A stretch of 6,389 nucleotides of DNA, taken from the IMG/VR virus record IMGVR_UViG_2706794662_000016, one strand, 5' to 3'. The notes beneath the pieces are model-generated. The model made no database searches, was not told where the DNA came from, and saw nothing but the letters and a program-made list of their open reading frames with translations. Source of the stretch: a virus (Duplodnaviria > Heunggongvirae > Uroviricota > Caudoviricetes). Of the stretch, positions 643-6,347 are shown piece by piece (position 1 is the stretch's first letter; each line of letters starts with the position of its first letter). Position numbers and translations under genes: made by a program.

Positions 643-930
643 ATGAATGATTTTTCTCTCGCTAAGAGAGCGCTTACAGAGGTCTTTCAAATCTCAATAG
701 CCAGCCGAGGAACACAGGAAACCGAGGGAAGAAAAACTATTGTGATTACCTTGAACAAGGTCTGTAAAGGTCGTTTAAGAGGTCGGTTAAGAAAGGAGCT
801 TCCCTCTCTGGGGTTATCGCTCTTCTCCCGATTAGTGGGGCGGTTAAGAGGGCTTGAAGTTATCTGTGAAGGTACTGGACAGCCTTATATATTGGGTGAT
901 TACAACTCGTTGAAAAATAAGCATTTTTAG
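643..930 (+). CDS. Doubtful ORF (95 aa) overlapping DNA repeats; likely non-coding
   Basis: Six-frame ORF with ATG, but no convincing SD or promoter upstream. Its repetitive peptide (GRLRGRLR...GRLRG) simply mirrors tandem 12-bp DNA repeats, and its 3' end lies inside direct repeat R1. Confidence 0.2.
   Translation: MNDFSLAKRALTEVFQISIASRGTQETEGRKTIVITLNKVCKGRLRGRLRKELPSLGLSLFSRLVGRLRGLEVICEGTGQPYILGDYNSLKNKHF
769..850. repeat. Iteron-like 12-mers GG(T)CG(T/G)TTAAGA: tandem pair 769-792, third copy 839-850
   Basis: Direct reading: ggtcgtttaaga / ggtcggttaaga / ggcggttaagag. A related ggtcgtttaa occurs at 1422-1431 inside repeat element A. Confidence 0.6.
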
Positions 931-1042: not shown

Positions 1043-1117
1043 GTGAATGCTTGATAGATACAGCTTTCCGGTTCTGTCAAGCTATTTTTTAATGGATAGC
1101 ACAAAATGCTAAAGACA

Positions 1118-1162
1118 CCCCTGTACCATAGACTTCTATCTGTCATCTCGTGCAGGGGTTTT
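1118..1162. terminator. Palindromic hairpin (CCCCTG ... CAGGGG) followed by TTTT; weak candidate bidirectional terminator at the 3' end of the minus-strand gene
   Basis: 6-bp GC-rich stem at 1118-1123 and 1153-1158 with a T-run at 1159-1162; the 29-nt loop weakens the call. Confidence 0.25.
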
Positions 1163-1170
1163 GAAGGAGT

Positions 1171-1503
1171 TTAACGGGGGTCTGTGTGGTCGTTATCCTT
1201 AAGGTCAAGCGTCCATGTACGACCGAACAGTTTAAAGACAACAAGCACTCTGACGAGGACGTAGCGAAGTAGCAGGCCTGCAATCAGCCCAATACCTCCA
1301 CCAGTCCATACATCAGGTGACCCCAGCTCAGGAGGGAGATTTACCATTAGTTTTCCTTGTAAGACGCTCTCAATCGCATTCTGACACAAAAAGTACCTGA
1401 CCTTATGAGTTGACCTGAAGAGGTCGTTTAACTCGTTACAGGGCGATTGAAGAGGTCTGTGTGCAATGCAAAATATGCGACCAAATACATAGCCACGCCT
1501 CAT
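1171..1503 (-). CDS. Hypothetical small protein (110 aa) with hydrophobic C-terminal segment; alternative 58-aa product from internal ATG (complement 1345-1347)
   Basis: A minus-strand promoter lies immediately upstream, with SD GGGGAGAG 6 nt before the ATG at complement(1501-1503). The C-terminus GGGIGLIAGLLLRYVLVRVLVVF is hydrophobic. The internal Met53 has its own SD (AAGGA). The N-terminal third is encoded across repeat element A, so its true extent is uncertain. Confidence 0.5.
   Translation of the reverse strand: MRRGYVFGRIFCIAHRPLQSPCNELNDLFRSTHKVRYFLCQNAIESVLQGKLMVNLPPELGSPDVWTGGGIGLIAGLLLRYVLVRVLVVFKLFGRTWTLDLKDNDHTDPR
1362..1459 (+). repeat. Bipartite repeat element, copy A: conserved 5' arm (1362-1392) and 3' arm (1426-1459) around a variable core; arms carry inverted repeat CTCAATCGC / GCGATTGA(A)GAG
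   Basis: Near-identical to copy B in both arms (5' arm about 29 of 31 nt, 3' arm 31 of 34 nt by eye); the cores differ in sequence and length. Confidence 0.65.
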
Positions 1504-1525
1504 ATTTTACTCTCCCCATAAACCC

Positions 1526-1555
1526 ATTATACCACAGATGTTACGAAAATGTTAA
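1526..1555 (-). promoter_or_regulatory. Sigma70-type promoter on minus strand (TTAACA - 18 nt - TGgTATAAT) driving the 1171-1503 gene
   Basis: The -10 is complement of 1526-1531 (TATAAT) with an extended TG; the -35 is complement of 1550-1555 (TTAACA); SD and ATG follow within about 25 nt. Confidence 0.6.
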
Positions 1556-1561
1556 AAATAC

Positions 1562-1590
1562 TTGACATTAGTCTTTGAAAATGCTAATAT
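1562..1590 (+). promoter_or_regulatory. Sigma70-type promoter P1 (TTGACA - 17 nt - TGcTAATAT) driving the 1642-2953 operon
   Basis: Consensus -35 TTGACA at 1562-1567, 17-nt spacer, extended -10 at 1582-1590. Its -35 sits 6 bp from the -35 of the divergent minus-strand promoter. Confidence 0.65.
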
Positions 1591-2953: not shown

Positions 2954-2990
2954 TCCGAGACTTTAAGAGAAATTAGAAAAACAGCTTATC

Positions 2991-3111
2991 AGACGCTCTC
3001 AATCGCATTCTAACGCAAAAAACTATCTTATTTTAGGGTGGGTAATACCACTGTACAGGCTACCCCTGAAAAAGACTGTTTAGCTCGTTACAGAGCGATT
3101 GAGGAGGTCTG
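2991..3111 (+). repeat. Bipartite repeat element, copy B: 5' arm 2991-3021, 3' arm 3078-3111, internal inverted repeat CTCAATCGC (2998-3006) / GCGATTGAG (3095-3103)
   Basis: Intergenic, with no ORF across it. Arms match copy A; the core contains palindrome CTGTACAG and a CCCCTGAAAAAG segment. Confidence 0.65.
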
Positions 3112-3131: not shown

Positions 3132-3455
3132 ATGAACGAATATGAATTACAGATTTTCATTGATAGCGACACTGCTATGATGGTGCAGGCTTTCGCTGAT
3201 TCCGGTGTATCAATTGACCTTGATAAATTACTAAAGCTAATGGCTGAAAACTCAGAAGAAATTGAAGACTTTATTCAGGAAATTGAAACTGGTGAACCGC
3301 GTTTTATGTTTCCTGTTACCGACTCAAACATGAAGCGTCTTATTATCGAAGAAACGAACAAATACAGCGTTAGCCCTGAAAAATATCTCAAGGCGGCTAT
3401 AGCAATTTTGTATAGCGATAATATTCTGGTGACGGATTCGAAGGTGGTGCATTAA
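3132..3455 (+). CDS. Hypothetical acidic protein (107 aa from ATG 3132); possible RHH-like C-terminal region
   Basis: SD AAGGAG at 3117-3122, 9 nt before the ATG; the track ORF begins at an upstream TTG (3099) inside repeat B. C-terminal FMFPVTDSNMKRLIIEETNKYSVSPEKYLKAAIAIL fits a strand-helix-helix pattern by eye. Confidence 0.7.
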   Translation: MNEYELQIFIDSDTAMMVQAFADSGVSIDLDKLLKLMAENSEEIEDFIQEIETGEPRFMFPVTDSNMKRLIIEETNKYSVSPEKYLKAAIAILYSDNILVTDSKVVH

Positions 3456-3520
3456 TGGAATTGGTGATTATCTGTTTTGTATTGATTGGTATGATTGCAG
3501 GTGCATCTATTAAAGTATAA
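3455..3520 (+). CDS. Candidate micro-ORF, 21-aa hydrophobic peptide (MELVIICFVLIGMIAGASIKV)
   Basis: ATG overlaps the upstream stop (TAATG at 3453-3457); SD-like AAGGTGG at 3441-3447, 7 nt upstream. Not in the ORF track (below its length cutoff). Confidence 0.3.
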   Translation: MELVIICFVLIGMIAGASIKV

Positions 3521-3544: not shown

Positions 3545-3573
3545 TTGACAAACAACCTTGAGCATGACATAAT
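3545..3573 (+). promoter_or_regulatory. Sigma70-type promoter P2 (TTGACA - 17 nt - TGaCATAAT)
   Basis: Consensus -35 at 3545-3550, 17-nt spacer, extended -10 at 3565-3573. Followed by TGTATATATGG, which also follows P1. Confidence 0.6.
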
Positions 3574-3742
3574 TGTATATATGGGGGAGAGCAATTCTCT
3601 CTTATTTTTTCTTTCAATAATCCGATGGATGGATATTCTGAGTTGGAAAGGTGCAATGCTTTTCGTCCTAGCCTTTCAGGTTGGTCTGAGAGGCTATCTC
3701 AAAAAGTCTTTGTTCATTCATTATTGAATCCTTTACAGCTTT

Positions 3743-5069: not shown

Positions 5070-6347
5070 ATGGCACAATTTAAAGTTGATGATTTTCTGA
5101 TTGAGTTAAGTTTTAACTCTCAGAAAGTTTTAAAAGGCTTGGAAAAAGCCGAGAAACAAACGATGCAGGTAGCATCACGAATTGAGAAGCGATTGAATAA
5201 GTCGTTTAGAGTTAATCCTACGCCTTTAAATGATTCTCTCAAACTAATGGAAAGAAATGTCGATAAAACTGTTTCCAAGATTGAGCAGCGTCTTAAAAAC
5301 ACTAGAGCGTTTAAGATTAAAACTGAAATTGAGGATACTTTAAAGCCACTTAGACAACCAAGACAGCCACGAATTAGCGGAAGCAGAGCAATCACAGCAG
5401 CTTACTCAGCGAATATGAGCAAGCTTCGTGACTTTAATCCTATGCTTGAGAAGTATTTTAAAAGCCAGTATTACAGCTTAAGCAGTAAATCCAAGACACT
5501 TGGAAACGAAACTTTTAATCGTGAGTTAGCAAAGTTAAATCAGTCTCTTCGTGAAACACTTTCTAAGTTTAACAAGACCACCAGCAAAAATAATCACAGT
5601 GAAAATGCTTCAAATAGTCTGGATGTATTAGCTACGAGTGCAATCAAAGCAGGTACAGCCATTTATAGTTTTCAGACAGCCTTAGAAGCTTACAGGCGGA
5701 TTATGGAGGTTGGTCTGAAAAAAGAAGCATCACAACGAGCGGCACAATTCGTTTTAGGTGATGAAGGTGCTAAACGAGCTACAGAATTTGTTAAGAATCT
5801 TGCTGATAGTAGTGGTGTAGACCAGATTGAAACATTAAGCAGTTTTGCTAAGTTTTCCGCTGGTGCTGGTGATATGAATGCAGACCAGAAAGAATCCTTA
5901 TTTTCTAATGTGATTGGTACATCCAGATTAATGGGGCTAAGCACCGATGAAATTAACGGGATTTTAAAAGCTTTCGAGCAGATGGCATCTAAAGGAAAGA
6001 TTCAGGCTGAAGAGCTACGCGGTCAATTAGGTGACAGAATGGCAGGTGCTTTTCAGTTATTTGCCAGAAGTCTTGGGATGACTACGGAAGAATTAGACAA
6101 GGCCATGAAAGACGGTAAGATTCTTTCTAAAGATGTTCTTCCTAAAGTATCCGCTGAAATGGGAAGGATGATTGATAAAGCTGGTGGATGGGAAAAGATT
6201 ATTAACTCTACTCAGACGCAGTTAGGCCGCTTAAGTAATTCATGGAATAATAATCTGGCCTTAATGTTCGATGGTTCACAGGAAGGTTTAACAGACTTTA
6301 CAAGGTCACTGACTAATTTACTTAATTCACTAAATAGCTGCGCTTAA
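5070..6347 (+). CDS. Tape-measure-domain protein (425 aa), lambda gpH-like N-terminal region; possibly a truncated remnant
   Basis: SD AAAGAGGTG 10 nt upstream. The motif EELRGQLGDRMAGAFQLFARSLGMTTEELDKAMKDGKILSKDVLP matches the conserved phage tape-measure core as I recall it, and the N-terminus MAQFKVDDFLIELSF resembles lambda gpH MAEPVGDLVVDLSL. Domain assignment is from memory. Confidence 0.8.
   Translation: MAQFKVDDFLIELSFNSQKVLKGLEKAEKQTMQVASRIEKRLNKSFRVNPTPLNDSLKLMERNVDKTVSKIEQRLKNTRAFKIKTEIEDTLKPLRQPRQPRISGSRAITAAYSANMSKLRDFNPMLEKYFKSQYYSLSSKSKTLGNETFNRELAKLNQSLRETLSKFNKTTSKNNHSENASNSLDVLATSAIKAGTAIYSFQTALEAYRRIMEVGLKKEASQRAAQFVLGDEGAKRATEFVKNLADSSGVDQIETLSSFAKFSAGAGDMNADQKESLFSNVIGTSRLMGLSTDEINGILKAFEQMASKGKIQAEELRGQLGDRMAGAFQLFARSLGMTTEELDKAMKDGKILSKDVLPKVSAEMGRMIDKAGGWEKIINSTQTQLGRLSNSWNNNLALMFDGSQEGLTDFTRSLTNLLNSLNSCA

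Follow-up and report, generated by a model that had tools for sequence, protein, structure and literature searches.

The 6,389-nt sequence IMGVR_UViG_2706794662_000016, a Caudoviricetes record of IMG/VR analysed here over its whole length (the window), carries on its minus strand, at 1171-1503, an ATG-started open reading frame (ORF) of 110 amino acids (aa). An earlier note, made from the letters of this DNA, had described the ORF as a divergently transcribed gene for a small protein with a hydrophobic C-terminus, overlapping a repeat element (repeat A), and had pointed to an internal start codon that would give a product of only 58 aa. Comparison with related loci well supports the shorter product: the conserved gene appears to be a form of 58 to 62 aa that starts at the internal ATG, and the 110-aa frame appears to be an accident of this lineage. 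The gene lies next to a pair of back-to-back promoters and is read away from a rightward operon of small genes. Its coordinates, together with those of its promoter, Shine-Dalgarno sequence (SD), leader, upstream ORF (uORF) and neighbouring features, including the end of an insertion sequence (IS), are collected in the table.

Features of the window around the small gene and elsewhere
Feature	Position	Strand	Basis or remark
Coding sequence of 58 aa plus stop, MVNLPPELGSPDVWTGGGIGLIAGLLLRYVLVRVLVVFKLFGRTWTLDLKDNDHTDPR	1171..1347	minus	conserved in all loci; predicted single-pass membrane protein
Shine-Dalgarno sequence AAGGAA	1353..1358	minus	5 nt upstream of the 58-aa start ATG (1345-1347)
In-frame 52-codon extension completing the 110-aa ORF	1348..1503	minus	lineage-specific, without protein-level selection
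Repeat A, copy 1	1360..1459	minus	optional palindrome of ~100 nt in the leader; long irregular hairpin abutting the SD
Leader hairpin GTGGCTAT...TGGTCGC with U-rich tail	1467..1496	minus	terminator-like in scan; possible attenuator
SD-like GGGGAGAG (1510-1517), 6 nt before upstream ATG (1501-1503)	1501..1517	minus	start of optional leader uORF
Leftward promoter TTAACA, 18-nt spacer, TG-extended TATAAT	1555..1526	minus	consensus scan, 11/12 matches
Rightward operon promoter TTGACA-17-TAATAT	1562..1590	plus	consensus scan; back to back with the leftward promoter
Hairpin with CCCCUG...CAGGGG stem	1117..1159	minus	from 12 nt past the stop codon; -22.7 kcal/mol, z-score (z) = -2.45
Repeat A, copy 2	2989..3111	plus	repeats copy 1 in direct orientation, with 23 nt inserted at its centre; intergenic, ends 20 nt before a 107-aa ORF
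orfA N-terminus of IS3-family element	within left ~190 nt	minus	ORF listing

Reading frame of the small gene

The comparison set consisted of the window and 27 related loci (Escherichia coli, E. albertii and Citrobacter; viral contigs; assemblies encoding divergent family members). The short protein is encoded in all 28 loci, and a conserved ATG opens the family frame in each of them. In one locus, L034, the frame from this ATG does not match the conserved core along its length, a sign of a possible frameshift downstream of the start; in L033 and L034 the gene callers chose other starts. The relatives retain a Shine-Dalgarno sequence (CAGGAAA or GAAGGT) at this position with or without repeat A. 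Nineteen distinct nucleotide sequences all keep the short ORF intact; their pairwise ratios of nonsynonymous to synonymous divergence (dN/dS) are 0.16-0.23 at synonymous divergences (dS) of 0.5-1.1; the least divergent pair, with seven differences and a dS of 0.045, gives an uninformative ratio of 0.90. Variable sites in the short ORF are distributed 28/13/41 over the three codon positions, and the sole length difference among the short ORFs is an in-frame indel of four codons. Judged by sequence comparison, the short ORF is under purifying selection and is not open by chance.

The extension that turns 58 codons into 110 has a different record. In the same pairs of loci, which have only 8 differences each in the extension, its dN/dS is 0.4-1.9 versus 0.07-0.18 for the short ORF. 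It is closed by a stop directly upstream in L011 and L012 and is shortened or has no start codon in most of the remaining loci, so that only two of the 27 loci in the uORF survey, the window and the near-identical locus L003, have a 110-aa frame that is open and begins with ATG. Hydropathy analysis of the extension reveals no hydrophobic or recognisable feature. The Prokaryotic Genome Annotation Pipeline (PGAP) annotates a 62-aa version as a hypothetical protein (WP_000247741, WP_000247742, WP_000247746 and WP_000247757), omits the 58-aa type and, in the records examined, never annotates the longer form. Because the conserved ATG is present in 28/28 loci, the short frame is under purifying selection, the extension is closed elsewhere and PGAP calls the short form alone, we regard the 58-62-aa form as the probable gene in this island family, a reading that is well supported.

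The sequence features described in the earlier note were all found, and its interpretation holds in part. Promoter, conservation and hydropathy agree that the divergent gene for a small hydrophobic protein is real; the gene has a promoter and ribosome-binding sites of its own, the internal ATG among the starts so equipped. Residues ~15-48 of the 110-aa frame are indeed encoded across copy 1 of repeat A, and this part is conserved as nucleotides and not as protein. The choice of start, which the note had singled out as important, is answered by the comparison, the 58-62-aa form being universal. Gene callers assign the small gene lengths from 39 to 113 aa (one 101-aa version is P0001), an annotation trap that the conserved product length corrects: insertion of an RNA palindrome can join a leader uORF and a gene into one frame, with the result that nucleotide conservation mimics a coding sequence.

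Promoters, leader and repeat A

Both promoters are conserved in every aligned relative, including the Citrobacter island. The hexamer TGTTAA/TTAACA occurs four times around them (1535-1625), with two direct copies over the leftward -35 element and an inverted pair just downstream of the rightward promoter (~1604-1622); these hexamers, which are conserved in relatives, are candidate operator sites. At the other end of the gene, the hairpin that follows the stop codon is a possible terminator of the small transcription unit, as modelled by its predicted fold; it was not flagged in the terminator scan because its loop is long.

The 5' leader of the small gene is ~170 nt long in the window, and only ~75-85 nt long in Citrobacter L014 and in L030-L034, whose leaders lack repeat A. 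It begins with a purine tract, followed by a hairpin (GTGGCTAT...ATGGTCAC) and a U-rich tail; the stem is found in all variants, and the U-run varies. Folded as a whole, the leader is no better than shuffled sequences (z = -1.24), and the Shine-Dalgarno sequence of the small gene is unpaired in the prediction. The upstream ATG lies 16 nt from the predicted transcript start, and an upstream ATG linked to a Shine-Dalgarno sequence is found in ~14 of 27 loci. Where the leader has no repeat A, the uORF encodes 19-32 aa and ends at or overlaps the main ATG, and in most leaders with repeat A its stop lies inside the repeat. In the lineage of the window the uORF stays in frame through copy 1; therefore, the 110-aa ORF is a leader uORF, an inserted palindrome and the real gene joined in one frame.

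Other sequences related to the leader were noted. A second promoter-like sequence, GTTGACA...CATAAT, is found on the plus strand in 3545-3612; downstream of it lie TATGGGGGAGAG, a hairpin with GAGAG/CTCTC arms and a T-run. The element TATGGGGAGAG of this region also opens the leftward leader (1520-1510, minus strand) and could be a leader or attenuator motif common to both. A second, unrelated palindromic insertion (TTATTCGATA...AACCGAATCAA) occupies the loop of the leader hairpin in L002, L009, L010, L011, L019 and L023, and some of these leaders contain a further nested GGGGTTGGTACAAGCCCAAC. The leader is a hotspot for nested palindromes.

Copies 1 and 2 of repeat A have two segments in common, one of 37 nt (89% identity) and one of 34 nt (91% identity). 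Copy 1 corresponds to a ~105-nt insertion or deletion between the conserved TGTGTGCAATGC block and the Shine-Dalgarno sequence, with TGTG at both junctions. It is present in 18 of the 28 loci (IS-truncated in L006) and absent, with a clean junction, from the other 10, which include the most divergent loci (Citrobacter L014, L030-L034). Across the islands, repeat A occupies three fixed slots, ~1.3 kb to the left, in the leader and 1.5-1.9 kb to the right, and all combinations of occupied slots occur, including none. From its distribution in these loci, repeat A appears dispensable for the small gene. An antisense pair formed by copies 1 and 2 was considered as a general mechanism and rejected because of these combinations, either or both copies being missing in many islands.

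Repeat A forms a long irregular hairpin on either strand (z of -3.3 to -6.0; -33 kcal/mol). Among 11 variants of copy 1, the changes in the outer stem are all from U-A to U-G or from C-G to U-G on the messenger RNA (mRNA) strand, on which canonical pairs fill 355 of 363 cells versus 315 of 363 on the plus strand. This mildly favours the view that copy 1 acts as RNA in the leader of the small gene. The inner helices of copies 1, 2 and 3 differ in sequence and all still pair; these helices and the G-U asymmetry between strands are the only features in favour of a folded strand. Covariation in copy 1 was not above that of shuffled alignments, the 11 variants offering too little variation. Single-sequence folds were used because RNAalifold, given copies 1 and 2 together in an alignment whose centre MAFFT had misaligned, missed the closing stem. 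Rfam covariance models gave no match anywhere in the window at E-values up to 1.

Copy 1 is ~93-95% identical between islands whose neighbouring coding sequence has a dS of 0.5; thus, it is either constrained as nucleotides or recently spread. Repeat A could serve as a site of RNase III-type processing or of protein binding, as a stabiliser or as a mobile palindrome. In form it resembles the RNase III sites of T7, enterobacterial repetitive intergenic consensus (ERIC) sequences and Correia-type elements, which are likewise imperfect palindromes of ~100-125 nt in intergenic or leader positions, and it shares with such modules two size classes, presence or absence at fixed slots and a 4-nt direct repeat, TGTG, at the junction. 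Unlike them, it was found only in this island family, in a second type of island and, as a fragment of 23 nt, in jumbo phages.

A third, diverged copy, ~70% identical and in the orientation opposite to that of copies 1 and 2, lies near the small serine recombinase gene in L001 (11658-11779), L010 (395-510), L015 (4951-5073) and L035 (at a distance of ~1.38 kb to the left of the small gene). The partner sequence in its closing stem is a different one, GCTCTGT/ACAGAGC, and the window has no such copy. A diverged copy is found in a different type of island (L017, 6206-6288), 1.4 kb upstream of a small serine recombinase gene. The 5' block of repeat A, ACGCTCTCAATCGCATTCTAACG, has an exact match of 23-24 nt in intergenic DNA of the Asteriusvirus jumbo phages 121Q, PBECO4 and EJP2 (L016 401-424, L025); the 3' arm was looked for at these matches and not found.

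The island around the gene

The window holds part of a mobile island. Its left ~190 nt are the end of an IS3-family element, which explains why positions 1-190 are matched in 4,827 of 5,426 E. coli genomes. The remainder is 86-91% identical to chromosomal E. coli islands of ~11 kb. Similarity to the related islands breaks off at 6332, and the tape-measure ORF of the window ends after 425 aa versus ~690 aa in complete copies. Therefore, together with the IS3-family left end, these features indicate that the island fragment was probably truncated by insertion sequences. The region 1100-1660 is present in 410 of 5,426 complete E. coli genomes, chromosomal every time, and these 410 genomes hold roughly 440 copies of the island; in strain Z1323CEC0006, an island carrier, this region is 98.7% identical. 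A strongly conserved, orphan, predicted small membrane protein sits at the control region of an island found in some 410 of these genomes.

Of the complete copies L001 and L002, one lies between yciI and tonB and the other inside a split DUF72 gene. Both encode two serine recombinases, a large one of ~506 aa and a small one, as well as a tape-measure protein of ~690 aa and a 'phage baseplate protein'; they also contain the region studied here and a rightward operon of small genes without assigned role. In many island copies one of the rightward-operon genes encodes an HNH endonuclease. Part of the tape-measure gene has 75-78% DNA identity over ~200 nt to Felix O1-like (Ounavirinae) phages. This segment alone was matched in a search of a phage collection, and a search of a plasmid collection gave zero matches.

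The relatives contain an integrase and a partial set of virion genes without a complete set, as expected of a phage satellite; the window itself holds only the truncated tape-measure gene. Because these relatives carry serine recombinases, and genes for a tape measure and a baseplate that are akin to those of Felix O1-like myoviruses, the ~11-kb island looks like a phage satellite, probably of virulent Felix O1-like phages. Phages of this kind are employed for therapy and typing. Barth, Nguyen and Seed (2023) described putative E. coli satellites that have genes for a tape measure and a baseplate hub and, in some cases, a serine recombinase (PMC10055350). Compared by description, those elements and the present islands both have a tape-measure gene and one baseplate gene and lack most tail genes; the former differ in having capsid genes, RepA_N initiators and mostly tyrosine integrases by tRNAs, none of which was seen in the present islands.

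Further observations concern the left arm of the island. Relative to the small gene, the small serine recombinase gene has either orientation, depending on the island (L001, L003, L005, L006, L008, L014, L030, L033, L037), which suggests that the left arm is invertible or rearranged. Window positions 762-849 contain short repeats that resemble iterons (GGTCGTTTAAGAGGTCGGTTAAGA and similar), and two units of ~95 bp follow in tandem at 858-940 and 952-1035; the repeats in 760-1035 could be an origin or a recombinase-binding region. A 95-aa ORF at 643-930 is without a family match and may be non-coding.

The 58-aa protein and its possible role

The 58-aa protein is predicted to have a single transmembrane helix. 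Its Kyte-Doolittle maximum over 19 residues is 2.29, at residues 19-37, and the maximum is 2.2-2.3 in three divergent members of the family. AlphaFold2 models one helix spanning residues 11-51, with a predicted local distance difference test (pLDDT) score of 91-95 for residues 21-40. The first 13 residues are acidic, and every lysine and arginine is placed on the C-terminal side of the helix; for this reason the N-terminus is predicted to be outside and the C-terminus inside. The helix carries a GxxxGxxxG motif (G16xxxG20xxxG24) in which G16 is nearly invariant; the invariant positions include G17, G18, G20, G24, R28, Y29, R33 and F38, and are followed by an invariant tail with basic and acidic residues, FGRxWxxDLKD (F41-G42-R43-x-W45-x-x-D48-L49-K50-D51).

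The protein has no match in Pfam (at E-values up to 10), PHROGs, PADLOC, NCBIfam or the PDB chains. An exhaustive profile search of 1.8 billion representatives returned 16 proteins, all fragments or variants of the same family, and a word-indexed search returned 48 close relatives, none of them annotated. A literature search on the protein accessions, on the peptide and on satellites of Felixounavirus found nothing. This orphan single-helix protein is a new member of a broad class, the small membrane proteins of mobile elements.

These features can be combined into one explanation, to which we give slightly better than even chances. Its gene structure is well supported: the leftward unit is self-contained and consists of a near-consensus sigma-70 promoter (1555-1526), a leader of ~170 nt, a Shine-Dalgarno sequence and ATG at 1345-1347, the 58-aa ORF and a hairpin after the stop codon. 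In the ancestral type of leader the uORF stops at the main start codon, and here it runs in frame through copy 1, a dispensable palindromic module inserted between leader and Shine-Dalgarno sequence. The product would be a single-pass inner-membrane protein with its acidic N-terminus outside and its FGRxWxxDLKD tail inside. Made from the resident island, it would serve in exclusion or immunity at the inner membrane, the glycine zipper mediating oligomerisation and the oligomer disturbing what takes place at the membrane when a phage or a rival island comes in, for example DNA entry. We propose the exclusion or immunity role itself with low confidence.

Several features speak for such a role. 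Promoter, gene and hairpin form an independent unit directed away from the operon; GC content is 0.51 over the small gene versus ~0.38 elsewhere; neither an endolysin in the island nor an antisense promoter was found. At the level of sequence only, the locus has the form of an autonomous small inner-membrane unit with its own promoter and terminator. HK97 gp15 offers a precedent: it is a small inner-membrane protein made from a prophage that blocks genome injection, dependent on the tail region of the incoming phage (PMC3594210). Like gp15, and like T4 Imm and P22 SieA as a class, the 58-aa protein is small, predicted to be membrane-inserted and encoded by an independent unit, and as with gp15 the mobile element also carries a tape-measure gene. 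It differs in that its gene lies beside a divergent promoter switch, whereas gp15 is in the tail operon, and no sequence similarity to gp15 or YebO was found; nor did Pfam, PHROG or PDB searches yield a match to the characterised exclusion proteins gp15/YebO, Imm, SieA and Sie2009.

Other points weigh against the combined explanation. The leader hairpin and its U-tail could end most transcripts before the gene, and the repeated TGTTAA motifs over the leftward promoter could be operators. A crude Hessa sum of ~+1.4 to +2.0 kcal/mol makes membrane insertion borderline, owing to two arginines inside the hydrophobic stretch. In this island ribosomes could still initiate at 1501-1503, where both the Shine-Dalgarno sequence and the ATG are good. 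No homology bears on function, the 16 family proteins among the 1.8 billion representatives being without annotation.

If the protein were instead a lysis-timing or holin-like effector, it would be made on helper infection and would alter membrane integrity or the holin clock of the helper. We think this rather unlikely, but several features fit it: the protein is small and has a glycine zipper in its one predicted transmembrane helix and a C-terminal tail that is charged; the island looks like a satellite of virulent myoviruses; and a conserved hydrophobic GxxxG micro-ORF in the rightward operon is a possible partner or antagonist. A precedent exists in LidI of the Vibrio cholerae satellite PLE, a transmembrane protein of 66 or 121 aa that has no homologues and had been unannotated in PLE (PMC7182436). 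LidI and the 58-aa protein are both short, orphan, single-transmembrane and easily missed by annotation, and PLE, a parasite of a virulent myovirus, has a large serine recombinase as does the present island. However, LidI is expressed during helper infection, whereas the small gene is transcribed from a host-type promoter that points away from the main, morphogenetic operon; there is no homology between the two proteins and no match to a holin family, and neither the window nor the complete islands L001 and L002 contain an endolysin or spanin.

The earlier note had also likened the locus to a type I toxin-antitoxin system. In such a module an RNA-restrained membrane toxin would stabilise the island, and the terminated leader RNA, or copy 2 pairing with copy 1, would be the candidate RNAs. 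The resemblance to type I toxins (Hok/Gef, Ldr, TisB, ZorO, Fst) lies in a small hydrophobic single helix, a long leader and a strong promoter. The peptide has 58-62 aa, the leader is at least 80 nt long with a conserved hairpin, the purine tract at its 5' end can pair with the pyrimidine-rich codons 4-6, and the leftward leader is antisense to the rightward mRNA at repeat A because copies 1 and 2 are direct repeats. Most type I toxins, however, are smaller and less elaborate than a protein of this length with an invariant hydrophilic tail. A consensus scan of the plus strand over 1100-1500 found no sigma-70-like site from which an antisense RNA could start, with weak or non-sigma-70 promoters still possible there, and no antisense RNA gene was detected; the protein matches neither Hok, Ldr, TisB, Ibs, Fst nor any other Pfam family and has no match in NCBIfam or PADLOC. 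The leader structure is optional, the large hairpin being absent from 10 of 28 loci and the copies of repeat A occurring in every combination, and the predicted fold leaves the Shine-Dalgarno sequence open; a smaller hairpin of the leader is conserved. This part of the note was therefore not sustained, and we consider a type I module unlikely. The note's other suggestion, a membrane-anchored immunity protein, is plausible from the sequence features described; it fits the anatomy of the locus better than a type I system because the unit is autonomous, has a higher GC content and points away from the operon.

It is most improbable that both products are made in this island and that ribosomes starting at 1501-1503 melt the repeat A hairpin to give a 110-aa isoform with a role of its own. 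The good Shine-Dalgarno sequence and ATG close to the predicted transcript start, and a frame that is open into the gene here and in L003 (with gene callers giving the 101-aa P0001), would allow such an isoform. Against it, translation must cross a hairpin of -33 kcal/mol, and the extension, open in two loci only, has neither protein-level constraint nor a recognisable feature.

The exclusion or immunity reading and the lysis-timing reading have a common consequence: if the protein does exclude phages or alter lysis, the phage susceptibility of clinical and food-chain E. coli would be affected.

The micro-ORF of the rightward operon encodes a hydrophobic peptide of 21 aa (MELVIICFVLIGMIAGASIKV; 3455-3520, plus strand), and its ATG overlaps the stop of the 107-aa ORF (TAATG). 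All 16 loci examined have an ORF of 21-25 aa in this slot; it comes in two sequence types, and both contain GxxxG or GxxxGxxxG, as does the 58-aa protein. A speculative and very unlikely scheme is that the 58-aa protein and the 21-25-aa micro-protein pair through their glycine-zipper helices as a two-peptide membrane switch (toxin-antidote or holin-antiholin) that controls DNA entry or lysis in a satellite of Felix O1-like phages, with repeat A as a mobile RNA hairpin tuning both transcripts. The inverted repeat I3 (1277-1293 / 3485-3501) consists of two stretches on opposite strands that each encode 'IG(L/M)IAG', one in the small gene and one in the micro-ORF.

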